NCBI GenBank assembly: GCA_043807425.1
Contig: JAZDFZ010000019.1
Span: 27,436 to 91,435 of the forward strand
Length of the DNA stretch: 64,000 bases
DNA from: Actinomycetota bacterium
GTDB lineage: Bacteria > Actinomycetota > Geothermincolia > Fen-727 > Anoxymicrobiaceae
Direction: 5' to 3'
Below, one piece after another: positions 9,885-49,200 of the stretch (within the stretch, counting starts at the first letter, position 1; the number at the start of each line of letters is the position of its first letter). The notes beneath the pieces were generated by a model. It was given only the letters and a program-made list of their open reading frames with translations. It was not told where the DNA came from and did no database searches. The position numbers were made by a program, and so were the translations under genes.

Positions 9885-12230
9885 TCACGGCACGTACATC
9901 ACGTTGTCCTGCACCCGGGCGCTCGTCCCCAGCCCCTGGACTATCGCGGCCACCTGGTTTATCCAGGAGGTCCCCGCCTCCCCTCCCATGATGGTCGGGC
10001 GGCAGTTGTCTATGTGGACCGGGCGGGACTCGGCCTGCAGGAACCCACGCGAGTCGAGCGATATCCGGGTCAGTATCGTGTAGTGCCCGGCGTCGCTGCC
10101 CGGGTTGAACACGAAGTTGCCCAGCGAGTAGCAGATCAGCCCGCCGTTGTATATCTCCATCCCCTGCACCACGTGCGGGTGATGGCCCAGCACGATGTCC
10201 GCGCCGCAGTCAATTGACAGCCGCGCGAGGTTCGCCTGGCGCGCCGTCGGGGTGTACTCCTTCTCGTTGCCCCAGTGGAAGGAGACCACCACGAAGTCGG
10301 CGTTGAGGCTCGCCGCCTGGACGTCGGCGATGAGCCTGCCCGTGTCGGTCGCGTCGCAGACACCCGGGTAGCCGGCATCCGCGTACCATCCCGCGGTACC
10401 GATGTCGTCGTACGCCATGAAGGCCACGCGCAGTCCCTCGGCGTCGAGGTACGCGGGGACGTGTGCGCTCTCGTAGTCGGCCCCCGCGCCGCAGTGGGCG
10501 ATGCCGAACCCGTCCAGGTAACCCAGGCAGTCGAGAAGCGCCACCGCCCCGTAGTCCCGGGCGTGGTTGTTGGCCTGCGAGACTACGTCCACCCCTGCGT
10601 CACGCATGGCCGGCAGGGCGTTTGGGTCGCCCTCGAAGGTGAACGTCTTCCCGGGGACCGGCGAGCCCTGGTATGACATGGTGCACTCCAGGTTCGCGAA
10701 CCCCAGGGTCGCGTCCGAGATATACGGGCTGACCCCGGTCCACACGTACCCGAAGCCGTTGGCGGCCAGAGTCGGCGACACGTCGCCACCGAGGTTCACG
10801 TCCCCGAGCACGGCCATCGACCATTTCGCCGTGCTGTAGTAGTCGAAGTAGATGGGCCGCTCGGCGATTATCTCCGTGCCGTTGGTCGTGGCGACGGTGG
10901 CGGAGAAGTCGTGGGCCGGGTCGTTGCCCTCCCCCAGCACGTCCTTGACGAAGACGGTCGCCCGGCTGTTGGGGCCGACGTCGAGGGCCTGAGCCCGGCT
11001 CGTCCCGTCGGCGAGCATGTAGGTGACGCTCACGGAGGCGGGCGAGGCTCCCGGGTTCTGGATACACAGGTAGGCGTCGAAGCCTGGGCGGCAAGTGCCC
11101 TCGGCGAACATGAACGACTGGGCCGGAGATGTCGCGCCCACCACGTCGTGGCCCCCGGTCCAGGCCCCCTTGTAGTTGAAGTACATGGGGCGCTCGACGA
11201 TGACCTTGCTCCCGTCGGTCGTCTCCACGCTGGCAGAGAAGTCGTGGGCCGGGTCATCGAACTCGCCCAGCACCTGCTTGACGACGACCGTGGACCGCGA
11301 GTGGGGGCTGATGGCCAGGGACTGGGCCTGGGTAGCGCCGGTGCCCAGCATGTAGGTGATCCTGAGGCGGGAGGTCTTGTCGCTCGGGTTCTGGATGCAG
11401 AGATAAGGATCGAAGCCGGGGCGGCACGTCCCCTCGGCGAAGTGGAACTCGGTCGATGGGGCGGTCGCGCCCACTACGTCGTGCCCGCCGGTCCAGCCGC
11501 CCTTGTAGTTGAAGTACATCGGGCGCTCGGCCACGATAAGCGCGCCGTTGGTCGTCTCCACGTGCGCGGAGAAGTCGTGCGCGGCGTCGTCGCCCTCGCC
11601 CAGCAGGTGCTTTGGGACGACCGTCGAACGGCTGTGCGCACCGACGGTCAGGTTCTCCTCGCGCGTGGTGCCGTCGCCCAGCATGTAGGTGACGAGCACG
11701 GCGGCGTCTCCGGAGCCCGGGTTCTGGATGCACAGGTAGGGGTCGAAGCCAGGGCGGCACGTCCCCTCGGCGAAGAACCACTCCGGCAGGGGTCCGTTGG
11801 TCCCCACCACGTCGTGACCCCCCGTCCAGACACCGTTGTACCGGAAGTACATGGGCCGCTCGGCGACCACCGGGACTGCCGACTCGACCTTCATCGAAAC
11901 GTCGTGCCCGGGCCCCAACTCGAGGTTCACATCCACGGTGGTGCGGCTCGCGGCGCGCAGTTCGTACGTCTTCACTTCGGTGCTGCCGTCCTCGAGCATG
12001 TAAGTGAAGGTCGCGCTGGTATCGTTGCCCGCGGGGTTGTAGAGGCAGACCCACTCGTTGAACCCGGTGCGGGTCGTCCCCTCGGCGAAGTACCAGGTCG
12101 TGGCGGCCTGGGTGCACCCCACCACGTCGTGCCCCCCGGTCCACCCGTTGGAGGCGAGCGCCGACGGAGCCGCCAGCGTGAGTACGATGGCAGCAAGGGC
12201 CAGTGACGCGATTATCCTTCTCTGGAGCAT
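9885..12230 (-). CDS. Secreted CapA-family metallophosphoesterase with four N-terminal WYFAEG (DUF5719-like) repeats
   Basis: Signal peptide; 4 repeats; LGDVNLG, ANLEC, ANNHARDYG, SFHWG, GHHPHVVQ, YSLGNF. Confidence 0.9.
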   Translation of the reverse strand: MLQRRIIASLALAAIVLTLAAPSALASNGWTGGHDVVGCTQAATTWYFAEGTTRTGFNEWVCLYNPAGNDTSATFTYMLEDGSTEVKTYELRAASRTTVDVNLELGPGHDVSMKVESAVPVVAERPMYFRYNGVWTGGHDVVGTNGPLPEWFFAEGTCRPGFDPYLCIQNPGSGDAAVLVTYMLGDGTTREENLTVGAHSRSTVVPKHLLGEGDDAAHDFSAHVETTNGALIVAERPMYFNYKGGWTGGHDVVGATAPSTEFHFAEGTCRPGFDPYLCIQNPSDKTSRLRITYMLGTGATQAQSLAISPHSRSTVVVKQVLGEFDDPAHDFSASVETTDGSKVIVERPMYFNYKGAWTGGHDVVGATSPAQSFMFAEGTCRPGFDAYLCIQNPGASPASVSVTYMLADGTSRAQALDVGPNSRATVFVKDVLGEGNDPAHDFSATVATTNGTEIIAERPIYFDYYSTAKWSMAVLGDVNLGGDVSPTLAANGFGYVWTGVSPYISDATLGFANLECTMSYQGSPVPGKTFTFEGDPNALPAMRDAGVDVVSQANNHARDYGAVALLDCLGYLDGFGIAHCGAGADYESAHVPAYLDAEGLRVAFMAYDDIGTAGWYADAGYPGVCDATDTGRLIADVQAASLNADFVVVSFHWGNEKEYTPTARQANLARLSIDCGADIVLGHHPHVVQGMEIYNGGLICYSLGNFVFNPGSDAGHYTILTRISLDSRGFLQAESRPVHIDNCRPTIMGGEAGTSWINQVAAIVQGLGTSARVQDNVMYVP

Positions 12231-12244
12231 TGATACCCCTGGTC

Positions 12245-12472
12245 TCAAGAAGCGACTGGTTCCGCGATCGCGATGTATTCGGCGAAAGAGCTCGAGTCAG
12301 GAACCGGCTGGCCGTCCTCGATGAGACCTTTGACGTGCAACTCGAGCGCCTCGTGCATATTCTTTTCGGCCTCTTCCCTCGTCTCACCGGTAGCGACACA
12401 ACCGGGCAGATCGGGTGAATATGCCGAATAGTTGCCGTTAGCCTTCTCTATTACTACCAGGAAACGGAACAT
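12245..12472 (-). CDS. hicB: HicB family antitoxin-like protein (no adjacent hicA)
   Basis: YSAYSPDLPGCVATGETREEA..EALELH. Confidence 0.88.
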   Translation of the reverse strand: MFRFLVVIEKANGNYSAYSPDLPGCVATGETREEAEKNMHEALELHVKGLIEDGQPVPDSSSFAEYIAIAEPVAS

Positions 12473-12511
12473 CTTTTAACTCTCCTCTGGATTCCTTATC
12501 TTAGCACGGGG

Positions 12512-13415
12512 TCAGCGGGAAATGAGGAACTCGCTCTCGGGGTCGTGGGTGGCGAGGCGGCGGGCGGCCTGGTCGCGGTCATTCACCGCGTAGCAGTAGG
12601 CGCAGCCGCGGGGGCAGGTGCGGTAGTTGCCGATGTCGCGGCTCTCGAAGCAGCCGCAGTCCTCGCGGTGAGGCTTTCGCCTGGCGTGCACGGTCGCGGG
12701 CTCGATGCCAAGGTGGCGGGCCACGTCCTCCAGCCGCCCAGGGTTTATACATGAGGCGGGTTCGACTCCCTGGACCAGCAGCCCGGGCTGAGCGCAGAGG
12801 CTGAGCCGCATCCCGCGGCCGGAGGCGGTGCTGGAAAGCTCGAGGAGAAGCCGCCGCTTCGCATCGTCGGGCGGGTCCTCCCAGGTGAAGCCGTGCTCGC
12901 GGGCGGCCGCGTCCAGGTTGCGTCTCGTCTTGCGGTAGACCTGCGCGAAGGAGACGATCACCTCGTCGTTTGCGCCCTCCAGCGAAGAGGCCAGGGCTTT
13001 AAAGCGCTCCAGGTGCCACTCCGGAGGGGTGAGCGACGAGAAGACGATGGGATCGTAGCGCCAGACCACGGCCCTCGGTCCGTACTCGTCGCGCAGGAGG
13101 TGCGCGCAGGCGGCGGCGCGCTCAGGGTCGGTGACCTCGCGGTCCAGCGCCTCGGGGGTACGGGATGATGGTGTGCTGAATGACGAACGGGAAACCGTGC
13201 TCGCGGGCGACGACCCGCAGGTTGTCGATGAACGGCTCCGGGTCCCTGGTCCAGAAGACGAACGCATCGACACCTTCCTCCCTTCGCAGGGGCACCCGGT
13301 ACGGCCGCCCGCCGTACGGGTTCACCACCATGCAGAAGCCGGCGGCGAGCCTGTTCATGAACCACTCGCCGTAGTAGGTCGGTATGTCGGTGCGGTAGCT
13401 CGCCGATACGATCAC
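12512..13415 (-). pseudogene. DUF1848 family protein with a +1 frameshift at the G5 run 13154-13158 (pseudogene or sequencing error)
   Basis: N-part IVSASYRTDIP..FWTRDP; C-part WRYDPI, CGCFESRDIG, CPRGCAYCYA in another frame; removing one base gives ..PYP-EALD.. Confidence 0.8.
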
Positions 13416-13458
13416 TCTTCTCTACCTCCGCTCTCCAGTATGACCGTTCAGCGTCGGT

Positions 13459-13491
13459 TTTTCGCATCGGCGTCTGACCCCGATGCGAAAA
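13459..13491. repeat. Hairpin TTTTCGCATCGG-CGTCTGACC-CCGATGCGAAAA (family C)
   Basis: 12-bp perfect arms; identical 29-nt core at 28951-28979. Confidence 0.85.
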
Positions 13492-13509
13492 TCTGATAGG
13501 CTCAGGGGC

Positions 13510-14405
<896 letters not shown>

Positions 14406-18907: not shown

Positions 18908-18910
18908 TCC

Positions 18911-19133: not shown

Positions 19134-21815
19134 TCAAGGTGATACCCCGTAGACCGCGCGTTCGACTGCGATGTCCTGGTTCGAAGTGACCGTGGTCGAG
19201 ACGCTCCACTCACCGGGGCAGGTATCGGCGACGTTCACCGTGCGGCGGGTCCGGGGGCTGAGGACCAGGGTCGGGCCGGTCACCTGGCGGGTGCCGGTCA
19301 TGTACTCGAGGCTCACCGTGGCGTTCTGCGTGCCCGGGTTCTGCACCAGCACCCAGGTCTGGAAGCCCTGGCCCGTGCAGCCCTCGGCTACGTACCAGGT
19401 CTTGCCTCGCGAGGTTACCCCGGCCGAGTCGTGTCCCTCACGCCGCCCGTCCCAGTAGACCGCCCGCTCGGCGATCACCGGCTGGTCGGCGTTGACCTCA
19501 GTCGAAACACTCCAGGCCGCTGGGACCGTGTCCGCTATGTTGACGGTGCGACGCGTGCCCGGGGGCAGGGTCACTAAAGGGCCCGTGACCGGCCCGGCGT
19601 CGGTCATGTACGTAACCTGCGCGTGCGCCTCGACGCTCCCCGGGTTCTGCAGCAGCAGCCAGGTCTCGAACGTGCCCCCGGTGGAGCCCTCGGCCAGGTA
19701 CCAGGTCTTCGAGGCCGACGTCACACCCCCCGAGTCGTGCCCGCCCGCACGCCCGTTCCAGTACATCGCACGCTCGGCGACGACCGGCTCGTCGGACTTG
19801 ACCGTGGTCGAGATATTCCACTCGGCCGGCACCGTGTCCGCGACGTTCACCGTCCTCCGCGAGCGCCCGGGAACGGTCAGCGGCGTGCCCGGGACCAGCC
19901 CCTCCCCCGTCATGTAGGTCAGGGTCACCTGCGCGTCCGCGTCGCCGGGATTCTGCACGAGTACCCAGGTCTCAAATCCGCCGGCGGTACAGCCCTCGGC
20001 CAGGTACCACTCGGTCGCGGTCGAGGTCACCCCGGTCGAGCCGTGGGCCCCGGTCCGGTCGCCCCAGTACATGGCGCGCTCCACAACCACCGGGACGTCG
20101 GAGGTCGCCTTCGCCGAGACCTCCCAGGCCTGTCCCACCGTGTCGGCCGCGTTCACCGTCGCCCTCGAGTCGGGCGGGAGCGTGACGGTCGGCCCGGGCT
20201 TCTCCCCATCGGCGGTCATGTAGATGATATCTACGGTCGCCGCCGTGCTCCCCGGGTTCTGCACCAGCACCCAGGTCTCGAACCCGCCGGCGGTGCAGCC
20301 TTCGGCCAGGTACCAGGTGACCCCCGGCTGGATGACCCCGGGGGCACCGGTCCCCCAGGTCCTGTTTCCTGAGACCGGCTTCGTCGCACCATACTCATAA
20401 GGGCCCATGTCGTACCCCGCGCCGAACGGGCGGGCCCCGCCGTCCAGGTCGATGGCCGGAGCGCCGTCCGACGACCCGGAGTCGATGGCCGGGCTTCCGG
20501 CCTTCAGGTGGTAGTCCCCTGCGGAGCCCCACGCCGGCTGCAGGAACTGCGGGTCCGAGCACAGGACCTCTTCGCCGACCGCCCCGGCCTCCAGCTCTTC
20601 GGCCGTGTATGTCTTTCCGTTGGCCTCCAGCGAGGAGTCGGGATGGTCCGGGCTGTAGAGGATGCAGTGGTCGAGCGTGAGGTCGGCCTCGGGCGCAAAG
20701 TACGGCGCGCCGTGGCCGTCGGCGACAATGTTGTTGCGGAACAGGACGCTTATCTGCGCCGCCCCCCCGTACTCGACGTACATGGGGTACGCCTCCCGCT
20801 CGGGGTTGTCGTGGATGGCACAGTTCTCTATCTCGAAGTCCGCGCCCTCCTGCTCGGTGCCGATGACCAGACCGGCCCAGGGGGAGGCCCCGCCGACACC
20901 GTCGCCTGTGCCGTAGACGAGCGTGTTCTCGACCCGGCTGCCGTCGCCCCACAGCTTGACCCCGTCGCAGGAGTTGTTCGCGACCACGCACTCGTGGATG
21001 TGGGTGTTCTGGCACTTGGAGTCCAACCCGTCGCCCCTGTTATGCTCGGCGACCGTGTCCACGATCTCAATGGGCCCCTCGGAGGGCTCGACCCCGAAGC
21101 CGTCGGGCCGGTCGTAGGGGCTCGGCCCCGGGCCGCCCTGGTAGTAGTGCCCCGAGTAAGAGAGGGTACAGCCGCGCACCTTTACGTTGCGCCATCCTCC
21201 CTGCTGACCCACCGGCCCGCCGAGGCAGCCGAACCCGCAGTACGACATCACGCACCCCTGGATGGTCGCGTCCGACAGGTCCGCGAAGTCCATCGCGCCC
21301 TCGTCTATGTGGTGGATGTAAAGGTCCTCGAGTGTCAGGTGGTCGACCGGCCCGCTGGAGCCGGCGATCCCGCCCCTGAACAGCGCCCCGTTGTCGGAGG
21401 TTATCTCCAGGTTCTCGATCGTGACGTAGCCGGTTCCCCCGATGTCCACCGCGGAGAACAGGTTGTCGCGCCCCGCGAGCACCGGGCGGTTGCCTTCCTC
21501 ACCCTTGATGACTATGGGCGCCGAGGCGGTCCCGGTCGGGGGGGTGATCATGTCGTCGTAGAAGGTGGACAGGATGTACCGCCCGCCCCGGATGACCAGG
21601 GTGTCCCCCGCCTGGAGTTGCTTCGAGGCGTAACCCGGGGTCTTCCATGGCTGGTCGAGCGTCCCCGGATTTGAGTCGAGGCCGGACGGGGACACATAGT
21701 AGGTCTGCGCGTCCCCGCCCGTACTCCCTGCCGCGCACGCGGGCGCCGTCCCCATCGCCACTACGATGACGAGGACGAGTGCGACCCGCGCCACCGCCAC
21801 TGTTCCAGCCTTCAT
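19134..21815 (-). CDS. Secreted right-handed parallel beta-helix protein with four C-terminal WYLAEG repeats
   Basis: Signal peptide; YYVSPSGLDSNPGT..PW, GDTLVIRGG, DYHLKAGSPAIDSG..DMGPYE; 4 repeats. Confidence 0.88.
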   Translation of the reverse strand: MKAGTVAVARVALVLVIVVAMGTAPACAAGSTGGDAQTYYVSPSGLDSNPGTLDQPWKTPGYASKQLQAGDTLVIRGGRYILSTFYDDMITPPTGTASAPIVIKGEEGNRPVLAGRDNLFSAVDIGGTGYVTIENLEITSDNGALFRGGIAGSSGPVDHLTLEDLYIHHIDEGAMDFADLSDATIQGCVMSYCGFGCLGGPVGQQGGWRNVKVRGCTLSYSGHYYQGGPGPSPYDRPDGFGVEPSEGPIEIVDTVAEHNRGDGLDSKCQNTHIHECVVANNSCDGVKLWGDGSRVENTLVYGTGDGVGGASPWAGLVIGTEQEGADFEIENCAIHDNPEREAYPMYVEYGGAAQISVLFRNNIVADGHGAPYFAPEADLTLDHCILYSPDHPDSSLEANGKTYTAEELEAGAVGEEVLCSDPQFLQPAWGSAGDYHLKAGSPAIDSGSSDGAPAIDLDGGARPFGAGYDMGPYEYGATKPVSGNRTWGTGAPGVIQPGVTWYLAEGCTAGGFETWVLVQNPGSTAATVDIIYMTADGEKPGPTVTLPPDSRATVNAADTVGQAWEVSAKATSDVPVVVERAMYWGDRTGAHGSTGVTSTATEWYLAEGCTAGGFETWVLVQNPGDADAQVTLTYMTGEGLVPGTPLTVPGRSRRTVNVADTVPAEWNISTTVKSDEPVVAERAMYWNGRAGGHDSGGVTSASKTWYLAEGSTGGTFETWLLLQNPGSVEAHAQVTYMTDAGPVTGPLVTLPPGTRRTVNIADTVPAAWSVSTEVNADQPVIAERAVYWDGRREGHDSAGVTSRGKTWYVAEGCTGQGFQTWVLVQNPGTQNATVSLEYMTGTRQVTGPTLVLSPRTRRTVNVADTCPGEWSVSTTVTSNQDIAVERAVYGVSP

Positions 21816-21988: not shown

Positions 21989-24268
21989 TTACGGTTGGGA
22001 GCTCGAAGAACCGCCGATCGTGTCCGTGCCGGCGCCCCTGCACAATGAGGGGTTCACGCTCTCCCTGGGCCAGTACATGGAGCGCTCGACCATCACCGGG
22101 CGGCCGGCTTCCGGGTCGCTGCTGACCATCACCGCCGCGCGGCCGGCGGCCCCGGAGTGAGCCCCCATCTCGTAGGTCCTCCGGGTGTTGGCGGGGATCG
22201 TCTCCGTCTTCGTCACATTTCCCTGCCCGTTGGGCCTGAAGTACGAGACGACCACCTGGACCTCCACCGCGTTCGGGTTCTGGATGAGCGTCCACGTCTC
22301 TATCTGCGGGCTGGAATCCCCGTCCGGCAGGTAGAACACGTAGTCCGGGGCGGGCATGCCGATGGAGTCGTGACAGGTCTCGCCGTACCCGCGGTCCCAG
22401 TACATGGCGCGCTCGGCGATGATGGGCTGCGTGCCGTGGACCCGGGTCGAGAAGTTGGGATCGGGGAGCACCATCTCGGCGTTCACGTTTATGGTCCGCC
22501 TGGTGTTGGGCTCCATCCTGAAGACGGGCATGTCCACGGGCCCCGCGCCGGTCATGTACGTCACGGTGACATCGGTGGCCGTCGCCTGGGGGTTCTGCAC
22601 CAGGATGAAGGACGTGAAACCGTAGGAAGTGCACCCCTCGGCCAGGTAGTAGTCCATCGACGGGTTGATGGTCCCGATGGAGTCGTGGCCCTCGCGCCGG
22701 TTGTAACGGTACATCGCCCTCTCGGGGATCACGGGCAGGTCGGAGTCCACCTTGATCGAGGCGTCCTTCGCGCCGATGTCCACTCCCATGTCGAAGGAGG
22801 CCCTCGAGTTCGCCGGGACAGTATGCTCGATCACCTGCGGCCCCTCGCCCTCTATCATGTAGGTGACGTCGCAGGTCGCCTCCAGTCCGTTGGGGTTCTG
22901 TATGAGGAGCCAGCACTCGAAGCCCCACTTCGAGGACCCCTCGGGGAGGAACCATGTAGTATCGGGGGCGGTGACCCCCACCGAGCTGTGGGACTCCTGG
23001 CAGCCTGCTCCAGGGCCCGTCCACATCATGCGCCTATCGACGGCGATGGTGTAACCCTCCTTGCACTCGACGCGAGTCGAGAAGTCCGTCGACCCGATGT
23101 CTCCCCTGGGGTCGATGGTCACCTGGGACTGCGCGGCGAGCGGCAGGTCCGGGCTCGTCTGCTCGCCGTCCCTGGTCTGGTAGGTCACCTCCGCGGTGAC
23201 CGGGACAGTGTTGGGGTTCTCGATGGTGATGAACGTCTCGAAGCCCCAGTCGGAGGACCCCTCCGCCAGGTACCAGGTGGTCAGCGACTCTCCCCCGTTC
23301 TCGGTCTTGAGGATCGTCCCGTTCGCTCCCACGGCCCAGGCCGTGTCGGCGTCCACGGCGGACACCCCGTACAGGTCGCCGGCCGGGGGGGCGGGCTGCT
23401 TGAACCAGCCGTTCCCCCCGTCCCCCGTCTGGAGGATGAACCCGCCCAGGGTGCTGAAGTCGTTGTACCCGACAGCCCATGCCGTGTTCGTGCCCGCGGC
23501 GCTTATGTCGAAGAGGATGTCGTCGGTCGGGCTGGGCTGCGTCGTCCAGTTGGTCCCGCTGTTGGTGGTCTTGACGACGGTCCCGCCGAACCCGTCCGCC
23601 CAGGCGGTGCTGGAGTTGGTCATCACGACTCCCCGGAGCTTGTTCGTAGTCCCCGGGTCGCGCTCGGACCAGGTGTTACCGCCGTCTATGGTCCGGACCA
23701 CCCTGCCCTCGTCGCCGACCGCGAAGGCGTGGTTCGTGTCGGTGGCATCGATGCTCCAAAGGCTCTTTCCCGCGACGCTCTGGTTGTCCCAATTATTCCC
23801 GCCGTCGGTCGTCTTGAGGATGGTCCCGTCGTAACCCACTATCCACACCGTGGTGGGGCTGAGCACCTTCACGCCCCGCAGGTTCTTCGTGCCGGTCGGC
23901 ACAGGCGCCAGGGGCGGGTTCCAGGCGGTCCCGTTGGTGGTGAGCAGCACGATGCCCCCGTCACCCACGACCCACGCGTTGCTGGAGTCAAGGGCGTCAA
24001 CGCAGGCGAAGTCCTCGCCGATGGTCCCGGAGGCCTGCGCCTGCCAGGTCGAGCCGTTCGTCGTCTTGAGGATGGTGTCGTTGGTGCCGACCGCCCAGGC
24101 CACATCCTGGCTGACCGCGCTCACTGATAGGAGATTATGAGTCACCCCGGATACCTGCTCGACCCACCCCTGTACCACGGGCTGGGCGACCGCCGTAGTG
24201 CCCCACGGCAGCGCCAGGGCGCACACCATCAGCCCGATCATTACCATTCCGGTTCCGCGCATCCTCAT
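21989..24268 (-). CDS. Secreted YCF48/BNR beta-propeller protein with four C-terminal WYLAEG repeats
   Basis: Signal peptide; seven AWAVG..GTILKTTDGG..W-type repeats; 4 repeats. Confidence 0.88.
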   Translation of the reverse strand: MRMRGTGMVMIGLMVCALALPWGTTAVAQPVVQGWVEQVSGVTHNLLSVSAVSQDVAWAVGTNDTILKTTNGSTWQAQASGTIGEDFACVDALDSSNAWVVGDGGIVLLTTNGTAWNPPLAPVPTGTKNLRGVKVLSPTTVWIVGYDGTILKTTDGGNNWDNQSVAGKSLWSIDATDTNHAFAVGDEGRVVRTIDGGNTWSERDPGTTNKLRGVVMTNSSTAWADGFGGTVVKTTNSGTNWTTQPSPTDDILFDISAAGTNTAWAVGYNDFSTLGGFILQTGDGGNGWFKQPAPPAGDLYGVSAVDADTAWAVGANGTILKTENGGESLTTWYLAEGSSDWGFETFITIENPNTVPVTAEVTYQTRDGEQTSPDLPLAAQSQVTIDPRGDIGSTDFSTRVECKEGYTIAVDRRMMWTGPGAGCQESHSSVGVTAPDTTWFLPEGSSKWGFECWLLIQNPNGLEATCDVTYMIEGEGPQVIEHTVPANSRASFDMGVDIGAKDASIKVDSDLPVIPERAMYRYNRREGHDSIGTINPSMDYYLAEGCTSYGFTSFILVQNPQATATDVTVTYMTGAGPVDMPVFRMEPNTRRTINVNAEMVLPDPNFSTRVHGTQPIIAERAMYWDRGYGETCHDSIGMPAPDYVFYLPDGDSSPQIETWTLIQNPNAVEVQVVVSYFRPNGQGNVTKTETIPANTRRTYEMGAHSGAAGRAAVMVSSDPEAGRPVMVERSMYWPRESVNPSLCRGAGTDTIGGSSSSQP

Positions 24269-27242: not shown

Positions 27243-27722
27243 TCAGTCTCTCCCCCACATGAATCCGATGATGGAGATCATCCGGCTCCAGTTATAGACC
27301 AGGATCCCCAGGAGCCAGGCCACGTAGATGATGCTTACCCAGTTGAGCTGGGTGAAGGCGATTATCGGCGTGATTATGAGCAGCGGCATCTCCAGTATCA
27401 GGATGATGCGGCGCGTCCGCACGAAGCTCACGATTATGCACGCCGCCAGCAGGTATCCCAGCGACCAGACCGGCGCCAGGAACCCGCATGCGATGAAGTA
27501 GATGTAACCCGCCAGGTCCAGGACCAGGTCGACGGCGAGGTCGTTGTCGCCGATACGGCTCTGCACGGGGGTTTCCAGGCTGCGGGCGAGCTGCCCGTCC
27601 GCCACGTCGGTGGTCCACCCGATGAGAATCAGCATGAGAACTATGCCGGCCGCCTCGCGACCGAACAGCAGCCCGACCGTGATCACGGCGAGGGCGATCA
27701 CCAGCCTCGAGGCCGTCAACAT
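27243..27722 (-). CDS. CDP-alcohol phosphatidyltransferase family protein (start uncertain)
   Basis: LTASR..TDVADGQLAR......G..DLAVD signature; multiple TMs. Confidence 0.75.
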   Translation of the reverse strand: MLTASRLVIALAVITVGLLFGREAAGIVLMLILIGWTTDVADGQLARSLETPVQSRIGDNDLAVDLVLDLAGYIYFIACGFLAPVWSLGYLLAACIIVSFVRTRRIILILEMPLLIITPIIAFTQLNWVSIIYVAWLLGILVYNWSRMISIIGFMWGRD

Positions 27723-28983: not shown

Positions 28984-31344
28984 TTAGAAGGCGCGGCCGC
29001 TCTTGCGCTTCTTCTCCATGACCCGCAGTATCGCCGGCAGCAGCGTCACCGCGATTATCACCGCCGAGCCGATACCCAGGGCCGCCGCCAGGCCCAGGGA
29101 GGCCAGCCCGCGGTACCGCGCCAGCAACAGCGCGGCGAACGCCGCCACTACGGTCAGGCCCGAGACCAGTATGGCCTTGCCCGTATGGGCGAGCACGGAG
29201 GGGATGGTCTCGCCCTCCAGGAGGTGCTCCTCCTCGTAGCGGTGCAGCACGTAGACGCCGAAGTCCACCCCGATGCCCAGTATCATGGGCGTGACGGCGA
29301 TGTTGACTATGTTGAACTTCATCCCCAGGAGGTTGAACGCCCCGATCATCCAGACCATGGCGAAGGCCAGCGGGAGCAGCGCCAGCAGTGAGGGGAGAAC
29401 CGCCTGGAAGTCGATCACCACCATCAGCATCACCACCACCGCCGAGAGCAGCGTGGTGTCGTTCAGGCCCTTGCGGGTGGACTCCAGCAGGTCCTGCACT
29501 ATCACCGGGAAGCCGATCACGTCCGTGGACACCTGCCGCACCTGGTCCAGGAACTCGTTGACGTTCTTCTCCTCGGACATGCTCTTCCTGGGGTAGACGT
29601 AGGTCGCGTACGTACCGTCGGAGGAGACGTACTTCTGCAGCGCGTCCGCCGGCAGCTTATCAACGGTAAGGGTGTCCGAGCCTATATCGTCCAGCACAGC
29701 CAGCATCTCCGGCGGCACGTAGGAAAGCCAGTCGGGGTTGATGCTCTGGATCTTGGTCTGGATGCGTGACATCAGCACCAGCTTGCTGAGCTGTTCCGAC
29801 GGGATGATGGTCGCCAGGGACTCGACCGCCCGAACGCTGAGCAGCTCCGCCAGCTTCTCGGTCACCTCGCGCATGGCCGGCTCGTTGTTGGACAGCACGA
29901 TGACGAAGTCAGAGCCCATGCCGAACTCCGAGGCCAGCTTCTCCTCGGCCTTCGTCACCTCCATCCCCCGCGGCTCCACCTTGCGGATGTTGCTCTCGTA
30001 CTTGATGAAGCCCGCGCTGGTCCCCAGGCCGATGGTCAGCACCAGCCCAACCCCGATGATCCACCACGGGCGCCTGGCGATGAACGAGCCCTCCCGGCGC
30101 ATCAGCCTGCTGGAGCTCTCGCCTTCCCTGGCCTTGTAGGGGATAAGCTTCTCCTTCATGGTCATAAGGGCGGGCAGCACGAAGAAGGTGGCGAGCAGTG
30201 TGCACAGCACGCCCGTGCCCAGGACCAGGCCCATGTCGTGCATGGCTTTGAACTCGGAGAAGACTATGGCGTAGAAGGCGCCGGCGGTGGTGAGCGCGCC
30301 GGTGATTATCCCCTTGCCGGTGTTTGACAGCGCGGACACGAAGGCCTGCCGGCCGTCGTCGCCCCGGTCCCTCTCCTCCCGGTAACGTGCCAGGAGCGCT
30401 ATGCCGTACTCTATGCCGATGCCCATTAGCACGGCGGCGAAGACCGACGATACCGTGTTCAGGGACTTCACGGTCACCCGCGCGAAGGCCAGCGTCCACA
30501 TCACGCCCACACCCAGCGACGCGATGGCCAGCAGCGGCTCGGTCAGACCCCTGAAGGCGACGGCCAGCACCACCACGATCACCAGGAGGGCTATCAGCCC
30601 CACCACCAGGATGTCGCGGTTGACCACGTTCCTCTGCTCGTACTGGAGCGCGTAGTTGCCCGCCTGCCATACCTTGACGCCCGGGTTCTGCTTCTCCATG
30701 TCGCCGGCGAGCTCGTTCATCTCCCTGCCCAGGGGGCCGGCCTTCGCGCTGTCGTCCGCGTTGAAGGACGGCCGGGCCACCAGCAGCACCGATTTGCCGT
30801 CGTCGCTGGTGAAGTACCCCTGGTCATCTATGGTGATGCCGCCGCCGAACGCCTGCGAGAGCTCCTCGCGCAGCGCCAGGAACGACTGCGCCATCTTCGC
30901 GAGCTCGTCGATGTTCCTCTCGGCCAGCAGCCGGTCCAGCTCGTTCAGCGTGTCCTTGTCAAGAAAAAGGAGCCCGTATCGCTGGAACTGGGTCACGTCC
31001 GCCTTGTACTGGATGTACTTGAACCGGCCGGTCTCGTCCATCTCGGAGGCCATCTCGTCGGCCAGCCCGCGGGCCTGCTCGGCGTCTTTCGCCTCGATGA
31101 GCACGATCATGTAGTCGGTGCCGCCGAACTTCTCGAACGCCTTGAAGTAGTTCTTGACCGCCGCGTGCTCCTGGGGGAGGAGGTCGACGTAGCGCGTGCT
31201 CACCTGCAGCGTCCTAACGGCGAAGAAGCACGGGACCAGCGAAGCGGCGACCAGCAGCAGCACCAGGTACCAGCGCCTGGTCGCGGTGCTCCCTATCCAG
31301 CTCAGTACCCTGGTCCTCAGATCAGGGCCCTTTTTCTTCCTCAG
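28984..31344 (-). CDS. MMPL/RND family transporter (probable CTG start)
   Basis: Two halves with MGIGIEYG..RYREE and LGIGVDFG..RYEEE; frame is open to CTG 31344 with GGAGG upstream. Confidence 0.88.
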   Translation of the reverse strand: MRKKKGPDLRTRVLSWIGSTATRRWYLVLLLVAASLVPCFFAVRTLQVSTRYVDLLPQEHAAVKNYFKAFEKFGGTDYMIVLIEAKDAEQARGLADEMASEMDETGRFKYIQYKADVTQFQRYGLLFLDKDTLNELDRLLAERNIDELAKMAQSFLALREELSQAFGGGITIDDQGYFTSDDGKSVLLVARPSFNADDSAKAGPLGREMNELAGDMEKQNPGVKVWQAGNYALQYEQRNVVNRDILVVGLIALLVIVVVLAVAFRGLTEPLLAIASLGVGVMWTLAFARVTVKSLNTVSSVFAAVLMGIGIEYGIALLARYREERDRGDDGRQAFVSALSNTGKGIITGALTTAGAFYAIVFSEFKAMHDMGLVLGTGVLCTLLATFFVLPALMTMKEKLIPYKAREGESSSRLMRREGSFIARRPWWIIGVGLVLTIGLGTSAGFIKYESNIRKVEPRGMEVTKAEEKLASEFGMGSDFVIVLSNNEPAMREVTEKLAELLSVRAVESLATIIPSEQLSKLVLMSRIQTKIQSINPDWLSYVPPEMLAVLDDIGSDTLTVDKLPADALQKYVSSDGTYATYVYPRKSMSEEKNVNEFLDQVRQVSTDVIGFPVIVQDLLESTRKGLNDTTLLSAVVVMLMVVIDFQAVLPSLLALLPLAFAMVWMIGAFNLLGMKFNIVNIAVTPMILGIGVDFGVYVLHRYEEEHLLEGETIPSVLAHTGKAILVSGLTVVAAFAALLLARYRGLASLGLAAALGIGSAVIIAVTLLPAILRVMEKKRKSGRAF

Positions 31345-32536
31345 CGCCTTTCCCCTCCCCTTCGTCCGGGCCCGCCGCGTCGTGCGTGGTCCTCATGTGC
31401 TCCTTCCTGCGGACAATGAAGCCGCCGAGGAAGAACCCCGCACCGAGCAACAGGAACAGGGTTACCATATAGTCCTGCACGAAACGCATCGGGCCGATAC
31501 GGCTACCCGCGTACTCGGTCGCCTGGGCGGCCTGAGCGTCCGTCCATCCGTAGTCGATGCGGTACAGCTCCTTGGGCTCCAGCAGCCTCTGCTGCTCGAC
31601 CTGGCTCAGGTACTGCAGGACCTGGGGGTCCTCGGCGTGCCTCGCCAGTATCTCGAAGAGCGGCAGGAACGTCCTTACCTCAGTGTTCACGTACACGGAT
31701 CTCCGGCAGCGCCCGATCTTCACGATCGTTCCCGTCACCGGCTCTACGGCCCCTTCCCACTCCAGCTTGACGCTGTACTCCAGCGCGATGGGCCGCGAGT
31801 CGGGGAACTGCGCGAAGGTCTGCCGCTCCTCCGGGGTCAGGTTGCTGGAGGCGGACCGCACCAGAGTGTCGATAGGTATGCCGGCGGCCGCGAGCTCTCC
31901 CTTTATCTCACCGAATGTCGTCTCCGTGGGAAGACCGATGGCCCTGACCTCGTAGTCCACCATGGGCCGGTGGCCGTGGGAACCCTTGAAGAGATACACG
32001 CCGACTCCGTTTATCACGTCCTTCTTCTCGAAGTTGACCGCGAAGGCGGAGGCGACGTCGTTGTCGAACAGGTTGCGGCTGTCCCTGCCCGCGCCGAAGG
32101 GGAAGTTCACGTACCAGGAGCCCGACCGGTCAACCACCTCACCTGAGGACGTCGAAAGGGTGCTGCTCATGTTCTCGCAGCTGCGCCGGTCCATCACGTA
32201 GATGTTGCGCTCGTCGAGGTTCAGCCCGAAGGGAGCCTGCCCGTCGGCCTCGATGACCTCCTCCACCACCGCTATATCGCCGTGGTAGTCTCCGTTCATC
32301 GACGAGAGCCTGCGGTCGAGCGGGACCCGACCCGTCTGAGCGGGAGTTATCCTGAGCAGGCCGTGCTTCTCGGCCAGGCGGGTTACGGTGGCTTCGGCGC
32401 GGAACGAGAGATCGTATCCCCTCGGGAAGACGACGATGCGTTTTATTGCCACGCCCCACCAGAGCACCGCGAAGATGAGCATCGCGACACCGATAAGCAC
32501 GAGCGTGTTCCCTATAGCGTTCCTGGCCCTTGCCAC
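31322..32536 (-). CDS. DUF3068 (PorA-like) membrane protein
   Basis: N- and C-terminal TMs; YVMDRRS, FPFG, VEPVTGTIV motifs. Confidence 0.7.
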   Translation of the reverse strand: MARARNAIGNTLVLIGVAMLIFAVLWWGVAIKRIVVFPRGYDLSFRAEATVTRLAEKHGLLRITPAQTGRVPLDRRLSSMNGDYHGDIAVVEEVIEADGQAPFGLNLDERNIYVMDRRSCENMSSTLSTSSGEVVDRSGSWYVNFPFGAGRDSRNLFDNDVASAFAVNFEKKDVINGVGVYLFKGSHGHRPMVDYEVRAIGLPTETTFGEIKGELAAAGIPIDTLVRSASSNLTPEERQTFAQFPDSRPIALEYSVKLEWEGAVEPVTGTIVKIGRCRRSVYVNTEVRTFLPLFEILARHAEDPQVLQYLSQVEQQRLLEPKELYRIDYGWTDAQAAQATEYAGSRIGPMRFVQDYMVTLFLLLGAGFFLGGFIVRRKEHMRTTHDAAGPDEGEGKGAEEEKGP

Positions 32537-44745: not shown

Positions 44746-44779
44746 GGGAGGTAGTCGATCGAGTGATCTACGGGCGGGT

Positions 44780-45172
44780 CTATTTGGACCCGCCCTTCTT
44801 CTTTGCGGGCTTCCGCGGCTTCGAGGGTTTCTGAGACTTCGACGCGTGGTAGACGTAGTCGAGCGACTCCTTGAGCAGGTCGGCGTCGGCGCGGAACTCC
44901 TCGGGGTCCGCGTGGCTCACCACAACCCACTCGCGCATCTTGCGTCCCTCCATCGGCTCGAAGAGGGTGTATCCTTCGCCCTCGACCAGCTCGGCCGCCC
45001 GCTCGGCCGGCAGCTTGATGGACACCCCGTCGCCGTACACGCAGGCGAACATCTTACCGTTGACCGAGTAGGAAGGGTACCCGAACGCCTTGCGCGGCTC
45101 GACCTCGGGATCCCCGAGAAGCATGTCGTCCAGGACCTCCTTCACCCGCGCGCTGTAATCGCCCCAGGCCAT
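44780..45172 (-). CDS. TfoX/Sxy-N or MmcQ-like protein
   Basis: RKAFGYPSYSVNGKMFAC, FEPMEGRKMREWV. Confidence 0.75.
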   Translation of the reverse strand: MAWGDYSARVKEVLDDMLLGDPEVEPRKAFGYPSYSVNGKMFACVYGDGVSIKLPAERAAELVEGEGYTLFEPMEGRKMREWVVVSHADPEEFRADADLLKESLDYVYHASKSQKPSKPRKPAKKKGGSK

Positions 45173-45306
45173 CGCCCCTCCCTTATGCAAGATTACCTCT
45201 AACCAAAACTTGCACGAACCCCTTCTAAAGATAGTACTCGATTGTAAAAGAAGCGGTTTGAGGTATCCTTCACGATACTGCAGGAAACGGTTTGAGGTGT
45301 TTTTGC

Positions 45307-46161
45307 ATGAGCCTGATCAACAGGATCGACGACTTCCTCGACAGGCAGAAGCCATGGGCCGTGTTCGCGGTGTGCCTGACGGTCGTGGCCGCGGTGGGGG
45401 TAGTGGACTACTTCAGCGGTACGGAGGTCACCTCTTCACTGTTCTACGTACTGCCCATCCTGGTCGCCGCCTGGTACGTGGGCATTTTCTACGGCCTCAT
45501 CGTCTCGGTTCTCAGCGCGGCGTCCCTGGTGACAACAGACGCCATCTGGGGGTACGCAGCGGGCGACCGCCTCGTACTTGCATGGACCTACCTGGTCCCC
45601 CTCGGGTTCTTCGTCATCTTCGTCATGCTGCTCAACCGGTTGAAGTCGGCGCTCAAGCGCGAGCAGGAGTTGTCGAGGAGGGACACCCTCACGGGCCTGA
45701 ACAACCGCCGCTTCTTCTGCGCCCTGGCCGAGTTCGAGCTGGAGCGCGCCCGGCGCTACGACCACCCGTTCGGGCTCGCCTACCTCGACCTGGACAACTT
45801 CAAGCAGGTCAACGATACCTGCGGGCACGACCAGGGTGACGAGGTGTTGAAGCTCGCGTCGACGCTGATGAAGGAGAGCCTTCGCGCGAACGACATCATC
45901 GGAAGGCTGGGTGGGGACGAGTTCGCGGTGCTGCTGCCGGAGGCGGACCCCACCTCCTGCGCCCTGGTCGCCCACCGCTTGAAGGCATCGATCGTAGACG
46001 CGATGAAGGAGCGGGGCTGGCCGGTGACCGCCAGCATCGGGCTCGTGGCGTTCCTGGAAGCGCCCGTGAGCGTCGACGAGATGCTCAAGGAGGGCGACAG
46101 GCTGATGTATGCGGTCAAGCAGACCGGCAAGAACAGCATCGACATGGAGGTCGTCGGCTAG
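45307..46161 (+). CDS. Membrane-bound diguanylate cyclase (GGDEF)
   Basis: About four TMs; DTLTGLNNRR, DLDNFKQVND..GH..GD, RLGGDEF. Confidence 0.93.
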   Translation: MSLINRIDDFLDRQKPWAVFAVCLTVVAAVGVVDYFSGTEVTSSLFYVLPILVAAWYVGIFYGLIVSVLSAASLVTTDAIWGYAAGDRLVLAWTYLVPLGFFVIFVMLLNRLKSALKREQELSRRDTLTGLNNRRFFCALAEFELERARRYDHPFGLAYLDLDNFKQVNDTCGHDQGDEVLKLASTLMKESLRANDIIGRLGGDEFAVLLPEADPTSCALVAHRLKASIVDAMKERGWPVTASIGLVAFLEAPVSVDEMLKEGDRLMYAVKQTGKNSIDMEVVG

Positions 46162-46169
46162 CGGGAAAA

Positions 46170-46217
46170 CACCTCAACCATCTTTTCCCACCGCCTTGGG
46201 AAAAGATGGTTGAGGTT
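46170..46217. repeat. Hairpin ACCTCAACCATCTTTTCCCA..TGGGAAAAGATGGTTGAGGT (family D), likely bidirectional terminator
   Basis: 20-bp arms between convergent genes; shares its core with 5913-6007. Confidence 0.85.
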
Positions 46218-46226
46218 AATTCCCGG

Positions 46227-49200
46227 TCAGCGGGTGCAGCCCTCGGCGAAGTGCCACTCGGCCAGGGGCGACGCCACTCCGCTGGAGGTGTGGCCGCCCG
46301 CCCAGCGGCCGTGGTAGTTGAAGTAGACCGGTCTCTCGGCCAGGAACTCGCCCGAAGACGACACCCTGATGCTGACGTCCTCACCAGCCCCCACGTCCAG
46401 GTTCACGTCCACCGTGCTCCGCGTGCCGGGCTGCACCGTCACCTCCCTGGACACTGTCCGCCCCGTGCCCGTGAAATAATCGACCGTGATCTGCGCGGGC
46501 TCCGCTCCGGGGTTCGCCAGGCAGAGCCAGGTGTTGAACCCGTCGCGGGTGCAGCCCTCGGCGAAGTACGTCTCGGTTCGCGGAGCCGCCGCTCCCATCG
46601 AGACGTCTCCCCCGTCCACTGCGCCCCGGAAGAGGAAGTAGAGGGGTCTTTCGGCGACTATGGGAACGTCGGAGCGCACGATGGTGGAGACGTCGCGATC
46701 GGGCCCCACCTCGGAGTTGACGTTGACGGTGCCGCGGCTCCCGGGCGCCAGGTCGTAGCTCCTGGACACCGGCTCGCCGGAGTCCAGCAGGTAGGTAACG
46801 TCCGCGCGCGCGGGTGTGTCACCCGGGTTCTGCAGGCACAGCCACTGCTCGAAGTACCCGTCGGTGGGGTTGGACCTCGTGGTCCCCTCGCCGAAGTACC
46901 AGGAGGTAGACGGCGCCTCGACCCCCAGGGAGTCGTGCCCGCCCCTCCAGCCGTGGTAATCGAAGTACATGGGCCGCTCGACTATCACCGGGATCCCCGA
47001 CTCCACCAGGGCCGAGACGTCCTGGCCCGGGCCCACGAAGGCGTTCACGTCGATGGTGGTCCTGCCCGCGGCGCGGGCGTCCACCTCCTGCACGCGCTGG
47101 GAGCCGTCGCCCAGCATGTAGGTGATCTTCAGGTGGGCATCCGCGTCACCGGGGTTCGATACCGTGAGCCACTCCTCGAACCCGTCCCGGGTGCATCCCT
47201 CCGCGAAGTACCAGGAAAGGGCGGGCCCGGCCGCCCCCACCGAGTCGTGCCCCCCGGCCATGCTCCCGTGGTAGTCGAAGTACATCGGCCTCTCCACCAC
47301 CAGCGGCCGGTCGCTCGACACGGTGGCGGAGACGTCCCGGCCGTATCCGACCTCGGAGTTCACGTCCACGGTGCGCCTCGAGTGCGCGGGCACCTCCACG
47401 TCCTTGAGTACCTCGTCACCGTCATCCATGAGGTAGCGGACGCTGGCCGTCGCGGGCGAGTCCCCCGCGTTCTGCAGGCACAGCCACTCGTTGAACTGCG
47501 GCTCTCCCCCGGGCTGCATGCCCCTCGCGCTCATGTACACCATGCCGAAGTTGGCGCTGTTGGTCGCCTCCTTGGTGGCGGTGTAGGACGGCGCATAGTA
47601 CTCGATGTCGGGGTTCGAGCCGGTCTTGAACGCCTCGGCGGCCCTGTCCAGCATCGCCGGGTCGCCCCCGTAGGCTACCGCGTAGGCCAGCGCATCCGCG
47701 GTCAGCAGGTGCCAGTTGCAGACGTTGACCTGCACCTCGTAGTCCTCCCAGCCCCACGGCGTCCCGTCGCGCATCCAGGCGTAGGGAACACCGCGGTTGC
47801 CGCGCTCGTCCACCTTCCACATGTAGCGGGTCTCCTGGTCGGCCATGGCCAGGAGCTGCTCGCGGGCGCCGCTCCCGTCGGTGCGCCCGATCTCGGCGCA
47901 CAGGTCGAGGTACCTTCCCAGCGACGCGGCGAGAAGGTCCCAGACGAACAGCTTGGTGAAGTGGCGGTCACCCGGTACCGGGGCGGTCAGGAACGGGTCC
48001 ACGGCCAGGTGGGAGTTCTGGATAATCCACTCGGCCGTGCCCAGGTAGCGCGCGTCCCCGGTGGCCCGGTACGCCTCGACCATCACCCACAGCCCGTGGG
48101 CGAACGGCCTGCCCGACTCGCAGTCGTTCTCGTAGTCGGGGGCGTTGGCGTAGCCTTCCCCGTTCCCCCGCCCGAAGGAGTTCTCGAACCTGTAGTGGAT
48201 GTTCTCGCTCACCTCGACGGCGGTCTGCCGCATGACCGGATCGCCGGTCATATTGTAGAGAAGGAACAGGCCCGGCGCCCCGAAGACCAGGTCCGGGTGC
48301 GGCATGCCGAAGTTGCGGTTGGGGTTCAGGTTGTTGTCCTCGTCGTGGTAGCAGTGCCCGAAGAAGCCTAGCTCCCACCAGTTGTCCGGGGTCCCGCTCG
48401 TATGTATGACGTCGAGGTCCGCGGTGTGACGGGCGCCCGCCACCGCCAGGTCGAGCCAGCGCGGGTCCCCGCCCCTGGCGAACTGCAGGGCCAGGCCCAG
48501 GGAGAAGTTGTACTTGTCGTTGAACGAGCCGGTTCCCCCGTCCTCGTAGTCGATGGGGACCTCGCCGTAGTCCTGCCACGAGTAGAAGTCGGTGTCCTCG
48601 ATCACCTTGAGAAGGTTGTTGTCCTGCCCGTCCAGGGTGGCGCGGTTCAACTGCTCGTACGCCGCGGCCTCCCCCTCACCGCTGACCGGGGCCACCCTTC
48701 CCAGGGCTCCGGTCGCCAGGTAGTACTCGGGGCTCGCGCAGGCGAACAGGGGCTCCTGGAATGCGAGCGCCCTGTCCCCCATCCCCGAGCTCCACGACGA
48801 GCCGAAGGAGTACAGCACCTCGTGTGTCTTCTGCTCTCCGGGCCTGAACGAGTAATCGCCGCCGTAACGGGCAGGGAACAGGGCGACCTCCAGCAGGCCG
48901 GCCGTGGCCTCCAGGGCCTTCGGGTAGTTCTGCCAGAAGCCGCGAACCGAGGCCGCGACGGCTCCGCCGGCGCCTCCGACTCCCATCCAGGGGCTCGGCC
49001 GGTCACCGCCGGCGACCTGCCCACCGTCCCGGTAGACTCGATACCCTCTGAAGGATACGTAGCTCTGGGGGCGCGGGTTGCTGCCGCGGTGCCTCGCCCA
49101 GGAGTCACCGCCGTTTGAGTCCTGGTAGATCTCCAGGGCACCCGATGACTGGAGCGCGTCCACACCGGAGCCGCCCAGGCGAGAAGGCCCTCCCGCGCCG

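Follow-up and report, generated by a model that had tools for sequence, protein, structure and literature searches.

Why should four exported proteins with unrelated passengers share the same block of repeats, and why should that block start at a different point of its repeating pattern from one protein to the next? The question is raised by a 64,000-nucleotide stretch of DNA (the window: positions 27,436 to 91,435 of contig JAZDFZ010000019.1, assembly GCA_043807425.1) from an actinobacterial genome whose class is given by the source names as Candidatus Geothermincolia / Anoxymicrobiaceae. We know of no cultured member of this class and of no description of its cell envelope. A first-pass annotation of the window had proposed that the block is a closed four-unit domain, and the present analysis supports that proposal: modules keep a length of 4.0 units over at least five phases, one form is inserted into the loop of a barrel, the modelled module is rigid, and a single-unit relative is predicted to assemble as a ring of four. 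The explanation that we consider probable, if some way from secure, is that the four-unit module is a closed pseudo-tetrameric ring of ASRAH-type sandwiches that serves as a general cell-envelope retention module of Candidatus Geothermincolia.

Under this explanation, four tandem sandwiches would fold head to tail into one closed ring, the covalent equivalent of the homotetramer of the solo proteins ASRT (Anabaena sensory rhodopsin transducer) and TM1070. If the ring is closed, the chain may enter and leave it anywhere, which would account for five kinds of form: the canonical one (W-strand to GGHD), one that opens with the last strand (the CapA-like and beta-helix proteins of the window), one that closes with strand 1 (the lyase-like protein), one with an intradomain break and a loop insertion, and a double form of 4+4 units. 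Such a ring would keep Sec-exported enzymes at the cell surface in the manner of the SLH and CWB2 triplets, to which it is unrelated.

Four proteins with four repeats each

All four genes are encoded on the reverse strand, and signal-peptide N-termini were recognized in each by eye. The first (9885-12248, 787 amino acids) specifies a CapA-like secreted protein with the module at its N-terminus and a Pfam PGA_cap domain at residues 478-715 (E = 5.8e-70). The other three modules are C-terminal, in secreted proteins with a right-handed beta-helix (P0002; 19134-21815, 893 amino acids, Pfam Beta_helix), a BNR/Ycf48-like propeller (P0003; 21989-24448, 819 amino acids in the open reading frame as listed, Pfam PSII_BNR) and a PcRGLX-like, lyase-like region (P0004; 46227-50075, 1282 amino acids, Pfam PcRGLX_2nd). 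The propeller of P0003 is a separate N-terminal domain, apart from the ring.

A profile built from the 16 repeats of the window gives exactly four matches per protein, with per-repeat E-values of 1e-28 to 1e-42, in agreement with the earlier count of four secreted proteins with four repeats of about 105 amino acids each. A search of the window with the unit profile did not find a fifth module protein. The 16 repeats align with a mean column identity of 45%, with G, N, Y and R invariant, and have the consensus xxxWYxAEGxTxxGFExWLxxQNPG...TYM...SRxTV...DVSxxV...ERPMYF...GGHDSxGV. The resemblance to DUF5719 (PF18986) that had been remarked on is real: all four proteins score above the Pfam cut-off of 26.2 bits (CapA-like 69, beta-helix 72, propeller 37.9, lyase-like 71.8). 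The lyase-like protein also matches Pfam ASRT (PF07100), with 29 bits against a cut-off of 25.

What sets the four modules apart is their phase. The three phases had been read correctly from the letters of the window, and our module coordinates agree with the earlier ones to within a few codons. Phase A, in which a GGHD segment leads and the last unit closes at ERxxY, is found in the CapA-like protein (module at 10839-12143, four profile matches, closing at ERPIYFDY) and in the beta-helix protein (19137-20366), where the leading segment is degenerate and merely GHD-like and the protein ends in VERAVYGVSP. Against a profile in which the unit is concatenated six times, the former covers about 4.1 units from state 91, a weak tail included, and the latter 3.94 units, from state 93 to state 86. 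The propeller module (21992-23284) has the canonical phase B, beginning at TWYLAEG and closing with the GHD-equivalent GAGTDTIGG; the C-terminal end of the protein, up to the stop codon, reads GAGTDTIGGSSSSQP. Phase C is that of the lyase-like module (46230-47495), which begins at FNEWLC with a unit 1 that has no strand 1 and ends, together with the protein, in an extra strand 1, EWHFAEGCTR; it runs from state 12 to state 12 and measures 4.01 units.

It had also been claimed that the C-terminal end of each protein supplies the strands missing from repeat 1. For the lyase-like protein the claim is supported by an AlphaFold model, which places the orphan C-terminal strand LAEWHFAEGCTR (46230-46265, reverse strand) in the sandwich of unit 1. 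For the CapA-like protein the corresponding element is the N-terminal GGHD segment WTGGHDVVGCTQA (12105-12143, reverse strand), which, to judge from the phase statistics, would provide the last strand of unit 4. In five further host proteins, unit 1 begins at profile states 9-14 and the chain likewise ends in WYFAEGxTx. The lyase-like protein does contain a degenerate strand-1-like segment, VYMSARG, upstream of FNEWLC, and could on that account be read as four complete units plus a truncated fifth; this reading was rejected, as the AlphaFold model leaves VYMSARG at a predicted local distance difference test score (pLDDT) below 50 and uses the C-terminal strand.

Count and phase across the genome and beyond

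The host genome assembly (3.07 Mb in 90 contigs, 78% complete) was searched through its 18,079 open frames of at least 80 amino acids, of which 95 match the unit profile. Counting strand-1 and GHD segments with a position-specific scoring matrix was too noisy, with false matches such as YMxGDG and 'GGFTV' at the ends of immunoglobulin-like (Ig) domains, and the six-fold concatenated profile was used instead. By this measure 76 of the 95 frames contain four units (70 inside contigs and 6 touching a contig end), and one protein contains 4+4. Four frames were scored as having five units; three of these are four-unit modules with an over-extended alignment, and the other is a four-unit module plus one permuted single unit. 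A further four-unit gene (C71:16680-19952) is cut by an in-frame stop at C71:19407-19409 into two frames of about two units each, which sum to four; the stop may mark a pseudogene or be an error of sequencing.

Beyond the host genome, a profile search of 1.84 billion representative proteins matched 9124 clusters at E <=1e-3. The 150 best of these by score were pooled with the 95 host frames and with 115 homologues of one inserted form (L061, discussed below) into a set of 360 proteins. Four matches were found in 132 of the top 150 and eight in 7, and all 7 proteins with five matches consist of a C-terminal part-unit, three full units and the complementary N-terminal part, so that by coverage 138 of the 150 have four unit-equivalents and 7 have eight. 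A ranking by score favours proteins with at least four units and provides no measure of how frequent one- to three-unit proteins are, a point to be set against these figures. The prediction that a hidden Markov model count over the genome and its relatives would peak at four has thus come true, with eight as the sole common alternative.

The length of a module does not depend on where it begins: 338 of 375 modules measure 3.6-4.4 units, irrespective of start phase. Put differently, the end phase follows the start phase, with a mean excess of -2 to -3 profile states and a standard deviation of 5-6 states out of 105. Among modules of about four units (77 in the host genome, 155 in the top 150), the canonical class, which runs from the W-strand or the linker before it to a linker or GHD segment, accounts for 51 of 77 and 117 of 155. 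Class A, with GHD first and an end at ERxMY, has 8 members in the genome and 11 in the top 150. Every module that starts after strand 1 also ends after strand 1 (class C; all 6 such modules of the genome and all 5 of the top 150), and the same agreement of start and end is seen in class D, with a break near state 64 (2 of 2 and 7 of 7), and in class D', with a break near state 77 (none in the genome, 2 of 2 in the top 150). All told, the chain is broken at five or more different points, of which two lie within a domain. When the exceptions to the phase rule were read singly, in most of them the alignment had run over into the final strand of an Ig domain ahead of the module.

Wherever one terminus of a module has only half a sandwich, the other half thus stands at the opposite terminus, a regularity that is hard to explain unless the ends meet. 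For this reason we find a beads-on-a-string reading scarcely credible, in which each repeat would be an independent Ig-like spacer that holds enzymes away from the surface and the number four a chance inheritance. Surface proteins often do contain tandem beta-sandwich spacers, and many of the modules come after TIG or Big domains, but a length of 4.0 units at every phase and opposite half-domains that always complement each other do not suit spacers of this kind.

Three single-unit proteins keep the phase rule as well; two run from W to GGHD, and one has GHD first and stops after ERAVY. Moreover, two proteins have a single unit permuted near state 77 (its C-terminal part, then states 2-77) ahead of a four-unit module, at residues 944-1042 of C17_34419_39419 and residues 9-114 of P0025, and so permutation is possible for single units too. 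At the other end of the chain, canonical C-terminal modules almost always stop four residues past the GHD-equivalent, at DTIGG(Y/F)SD (for example in C26_36951_39587 and C54_5275_8190). The lack of any extension beyond this point suggests that the C-terminus itself is constrained.

The repeat belongs to the ASRAH fold

The repeat is an ASRAH beta-sandwich of the ASRT/TM1070 type, which Pfam models in part as DUF5719. A phmmer search with the lyase module finds TM1070 (1nc7) at E = 1.2e-3, along with the Anabaena sensory rhodopsin transducer, and PF07100 is precomputed on many of the homologues. Structural comparison of the lyase module model by VIA-align gives Z-scores of 16.2 (root-mean-square deviation 3.4, 111 residues aligned) and 17.1 (1.8, 105 residues aligned) with 1nc7 and of 11.7-13 with ASRT, and these two are the sole chains with Z >=8 among 48,161 representatives. 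Foldseek returns a probability of 1.00 and TMt values of 0.78-0.82. A solved chain covering more than one unit was not found among these representatives, the longest meaningful alignments being 105-111 residues.

Two residues are hallmarks of the superfamily, a conserved Trp where strand 1 begins and a near-invariant Asn where strand 2 ends (De Souza, Iyer and Aravind 2009, PMC2739507). In the window the Asn is invariant, in 16 of 16 repeats, and the Trp position is occupied by W, F, Y, V or T. Since the TM1070 chain spans a unit from just ahead of the Trp strand to the end of the GGHD segment, the unit of the propeller phase (W-strand, ERxMY, GGHD strand) is taken as canonical.

According to the same source, and for the tetramers also PMC8660804, the solo members ASRT and TM1070 are tetramers, an amidase-fused secreted family of the Chloroflexi always has four units, and an actinobacterial lipoprotein family, with a link to a glycosyltransferase and WhiB, has two. 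From this its authors inferred structures that are homo- or hetero-tetrameric and a binding of sugar or peptidoglycan. A fixed count of four is therefore not new, since De Souza et al. already state it for amidase-associated domains. The first-pass annotation had supposed both the fixed count and the permutation to be undescribed. The former does not hold; as to the latter, our literature search met with no account of ring-level permutation. Nor did it find a description of the class-wide expansion or of the use of the module in the anchor slot of unrelated passengers, with the proviso that papers outside that search could differ. What appears to be new here, then, is the ring-level permutation (intradomain breaks and insertion in a barrel), the presence on about 80 proteins per genome, and the anchor-slot use, the domain and the count of four being already known.

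Set beside these relatives, the window modules share the fold and the hallmark Trp and Asn with solo ASRT and TM1070 (PF07100), and a single-unit relative is predicted as a ring of four; the solo proteins, however, are cytoplasmic single domains in four chains, whereas the modules place four units in one exported, enzyme-fused chain. The Chloroflexi tetrads (family 2) are likewise secreted and four-unit, and two Amidase_3 fusions occur in the host genome. Those tetrads were described with an amidase partner only and with no permutation, whereas here there are dozens of partner types, at least five entry phases, insertion into other domains and some 80 copies in each genome. An amidase is absent from all four window proteins, and just 2 of the 40 genome partners scanned are Amidase_3. 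The DUF5719 lipoproteins come from the same phylum, and their Pfam model matches the window proteins, but they are described as dyads with a glycosyltransferase/WhiB link, whereas the window genes are tetrads among unrelated neighbours. As a lead only, clusters of DUF5719/ASRT in a protein atlas are commonest in Acidobacteriota, Actinomycetota and Chloroflexota.

The earlier comparison with the velcro closure of beta-propellers survives as an analogy only, for the fold is not that of a propeller. With beta-propellers, and with permuted carbohydrate-binding modules (CBMs), the ring would share a closed repeat array, a shifted start and a terminal strand that completes unit 1. Its units, on the other hand, are sandwiches of 105 amino acids rather than four-stranded blades, and its break points include positions inside a domain and allow insertion in a host barrel.

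Predicted structures

Repeat identity, counts, phases, expansion and partner domains are read from sequence; ring geometry and strand complementation are properties of predicted models. For the lyase module (447 amino acids, aligned with 63 paralogous modules), AlphaFold returns a mean pLDDT of 90.8 and a predicted TM-score (pTM) of 0.90, and the module is modelled as a single rigid body rather than as beads on a string. The C-terminal strand is assigned by DSSP to residues 436-441, and the last three 10-residue blocks (421-447) have mean pLDDT values of 80, 97 and 87. In two structure searches, 37 of 50 and 33 of 50 rows were single compact sandwiches that align over 60-78 residues, from residues 14-28 of the model to residues 442-447; the targets include FN3 domains that stand alone, with a length of 93-115 residues. 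Because the aligned ranges span both, unit 1 and the extreme C-terminal strand would form one sandwich of the lyase model.

A second test of closure is provided by modules that sit inside another domain. The inserted form was modelled at full length (810 amino acids) from an alignment of 71 orthologues, as canonical modules mis-register against it, and reached a pLDDT of 93.1 and a pTM of 0.88. Barrels of the GH39/PslG type align over 282-306 residues (Z 27), across residues 39-62 to 801-802. Because these barrels align on both sides of it, a single barrel is predicted to span the insert of 420 amino acids, and the half-units at the two ends of the insert have pLDDT values of 95-98. Beads on a string would fit poorly with a module in a barrel loop, with pTM values of 0.88-0.90 and with a C-terminal strand in the sandwich of unit 1.

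The third line of evidence comes from a natural single-unit domain. Four copies of it were predicted together with a score of 0.94, against 0.21 for the best of three controls, a mark attained by 20 of the 30 proteins whose solved structure is a same-chain pair and by 1 of the 23 whose solved structure is a single chain. Across the four-copy runs at least 83% of contacts agree, and the partner pLDDT is at least 87. This is a likeness and not a proof, because the predictor may remember the solved TM1070 and ASRT tetramers. The ASRT tetramer is a planar C4 assembly. In the four-copy model the YLAEG face is turned to one neighbour and the QNP, SRxT and ER face to the other, the diagonal copy being touched only through G-HDS of the GGHD segment, and 6 of the 11 most conserved columns of the single-unit alignment fall in these interfaces. 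In the closed ring, by the same arrangement, the most conserved motifs (YxAEG, QNP, SRxT and ER) would line the contacts between units, and the GGHD segments would meet at the centre. A metal site of four His/Asp residues at that centre was considered and left as speculation; terminal GHD-equivalents often have no His (xxDTIGG).

Expansion in the class

The ring is no rarity in this genome. Its modules occupy 36,895 residues, or 3.6% of the genome. Of the 76 module proteins whose 5' end is complete, a crude rule assigns signal-peptide-like N-termini to 71; for long control open reading frames the figure is 71 of 300. Unit matches number at least 83, and in some cases over 150, in every one of the 31 class genomes searched (the host and 30 relatives). 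Among 151 genomes sampled from the phylum, 11 class members have 126-401 candidate matches each, 21 others have 1-2 (five unpublished genomes, G031, G075, G113, G142 and G168, among them), and 119 have none. As read from these sequences, the expansion is class-wide and would put a ring on about 80 exported proteins per genome. For annotation, with 9124 clusters matching the profile, thousands of proteins now called 'DUF5719 family' or 'hypothetical' would be explained and tied to the ASRT fold.

The ring might instead be a self-assembly unit, forming a surface-layer-like lattice or oligomers through ring-ring contacts with no wall ligand. Besides the 3.6% share of the genome, this idea draws on proteins that consist of a signal peptide and the ring alone (C54_1751_3193, an open reading frame of 481 amino acids, and C31_26642_28051, one of 470) and on the double-ring proteins P0009-P0012. 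We nonetheless think it quite unlikely, for most copies are fused to unrelated kinds of enzyme, and it is at intra-ring contacts that the conserved residues are located. One giant frame with a module, C33_3_15683, exceeds 5200 amino acids; it lies on the reverse strand, touches a contig end and has the module near its N-terminus, at frame residues 75-488.

In the 74 single-module proteins of the host, the module is C-terminal in 65, N-terminal in 7 and inside another domain in 2. The first-pass annotation had argued from two termini that the module is not a C-terminal sorting signal, and the larger sample bears this out. A role as the recognition domain of a dedicated secretion or sorting machine, comparable to the C-terminal domain of the type IX secretion system (T9SS), seems to us very improbable. 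The C-terminal preference is in its favour, as are the highly conserved G(Y/F)SD end of canonical copies and the fact that the ring stands where orthologues of one passenger have T9SS sorting domains (see below), but the N-terminal and internal copies do not fit it, the proteins have ordinary signal peptides, and 430 amino acids is far above the size of known sorting signals. Partner machinery was not found in the genome either; one sortase is present, but the module proteins have no LPXTG-type end.

Partners and the anchor slot

If the ring is a retention module, what does it retain? Among 40 partners scanned, 10 belong to families that act on peptidoglycan: Amidase_3 (two; L070 and L084), SpoIID (two), YkuD L,D-transpeptidase (two), M23, NlpC/P60, an M99-like protein and a polysaccharide deacetylase. 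The others include subtilases (3), Vgb_lyase-like propellers (4), GH17, GH114, GH123, TIG, Kelch, FG-GAP, PQQ_2, beta-helix, 5'-nucleotidase, DUF362 and DUF11, and six partner regions have no family. Elsewhere, wall enzymes usually bear LysM, SH3, peptidoglycan-binding or SLH modules. A profile search of the host genome, which is incomplete as noted, did not find LysM, and SLH is present in one protein only.

A further indication comes from the passenger of the beta-helix protein, in which a choice-of-anchor Q domain (NCBIfam choice_anch_Q, E = 6.5e-12; residues 429-475) lies directly ahead of the ring. The name 'choice-of-anchor' marks domains that are trailed by different anchors in different lineages. 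Orthologues of this passenger occur in many phyla at 53-69% identity, and among the 120 listed, 20 have DUF5719, at least 7 a T9SS sorting domain, one a CWB2 triplet (P0366) and one a dockerin. These CWB2, T9SS and dockerin domains are all C-terminal, in the slot of the ring; many other orthologues have no extra domain. From the partners, the missing common wall modules and the anchor swaps in orthologues taken together, the ring can be read as the anchor chosen by this class, and a role as cell-wall or surface anchor is inferred from sequence on these grounds. The ligand would most likely be peptidoglycan or a wall glycopolymer, held in the four clefts between units, as was proposed for the amidase family (PMC2739507).

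The SLH and CWB2 triplets provide the closest functional parallel. They are closed pseudo-trimeric cell-wall-binding modules of Gram-positive bacteria, and like the ring they are fixed-count tandem units found on many exported enzymes, with the CWB2 triplet of P0366 standing in the very same slot. The likeness is functional only, however, for the ring has four units rather than three and no relation to them in sequence or fold, neither SLH nor CWB2 being a beta-sandwich of its type; SLH and CW_binding_2 profiles give no match in the four window proteins at E <=0.01.

The same partners can be turned to a different purpose, in which the ring would be a substrate-targeting CBM for external polysaccharides rather than a means of retention on the wall of the cell itself. 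Sugar binding was predicted for ASRAH domains (PMC2739507), several partners resemble glycosidases or lyases (GH17, GH114, GH123, the GH39-like barrel, the PcRGLX-like protein, beta-helix), one ring sits within a glycosidase barrel, and there are weak fold matches to CBMs (Z 5.6-6.6). That said, the partners also include subtilases, amidases, M23, NlpC/P60, 5'-nucleotidase, DUF362 and propellers, and no single external polysaccharide suits them all; L,D-transpeptidases work on the cell's own wall, and the orthologues of the beta-helix passenger have true anchors in the same slot. We regard the CBM reading as unlikely, though less so than the other alternatives.

Several observations nonetheless weigh against a closed ring that anchors proteins. 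The evidence for closure is indirect, coming from pTM, DSSP, aligned ranges and an interface list, and just two modules were modelled, the lyase module and one inserted form. A few modules truly have GHD-like segments at both ends. Four is not an absolute number: inserted modules in GH39-like barrels, homologues of L061, have three units in P0234, P0240 and P0241 and five in P0201 (P0234 may reflect assembly collapse, because its two full units are near-identical), and complete host proteins with one unit (three) and with two units (one) exist, the remaining frames being fragments. The strand-2 His and Cys of TM1070 that contact its ligand are not conserved in the window repeats. The absence of LysM is weak evidence because the genome is 78% complete, and in the one SLH protein, which also bears a ring, the ring is not the sole possible anchor. 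Finally, a conserved partner gene was not found near the window genes, whose neighbours are unrelated metabolic and transport genes, so that the neighbourhood gives no functional clue.

The sole complete two-unit protein, C31_19271_21829, has a WD40-like propeller ahead of its two units and may pair as a dimer into a ring of four.

With these points in the balance, retention at the envelope by a closed ring is still the explanation we prefer. A bolder version of it, which we put forward tentatively and would not yet expect to hold, is that the ASRAH ring is the main surface-anchoring system of the whole actinobacterial class, binding a class-specific wall polymer at its four interface clefts and, being closed, permuted ring-wide and placeable at either end of a passenger or inside it. 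If true, SLH, CWB2 and choline-binding repeats would be joined by a fourth, new kind of wall-binding module with a fixed count. A ring on about 80 exported proteins would mark most of the surface proteome and provide a handle for finding the wall ligand.

Evolution of the tetrad

Between proteins, units at the same position are 39.7% alike, against 35.1% for units at different positions, and the nearest relative of a unit lies at the same position of another protein in 182 of 304 cases and within the same protein in 61 of 304. Because nearest relatives share position, the four-unit cassette, and not the single unit, would be what has been copied and shuffled. The permuted forms may have arisen through duplication, as in the 4+4 proteins, followed by trimming at both ends. 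The phase classes count few events rather than many, because phase-C genes cluster at C71:40926-54312. Four phase-C ring proteins lie close together there, as fusions to FG-GAP, SpoIID, SLH plus NlpC/P60, and Amidase_3.

For the study of protein evolution, hundreds of paralogues, at least five break points, some of them inside a domain, and an insertion in a TIM barrel would show how well the ring tolerates circular permutation; if the bolder reading is right, nature would here offer a clear example of a ring of several domains that is permuted as a whole. For engineering, a ring that is compact and leaves the position of its chain ends almost free would be an attractive display scaffold.

Neighbouring genes

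Glycosyltransferase and WhiB families, the genes linked to the two-unit lipoproteins, were not found among the 20 neighbouring open reading frames scanned. One pair of neighbours deserves mention in its own right: a gene for an MMPL-family transporter (28984-31263, reverse strand) adjoins one with a match to the Pfam family 'Porin PorA' (PF11271, E = 7e-24; 31322-32536, reverse strand), a pairing that may be relevant to the envelope type of this uncultured class.

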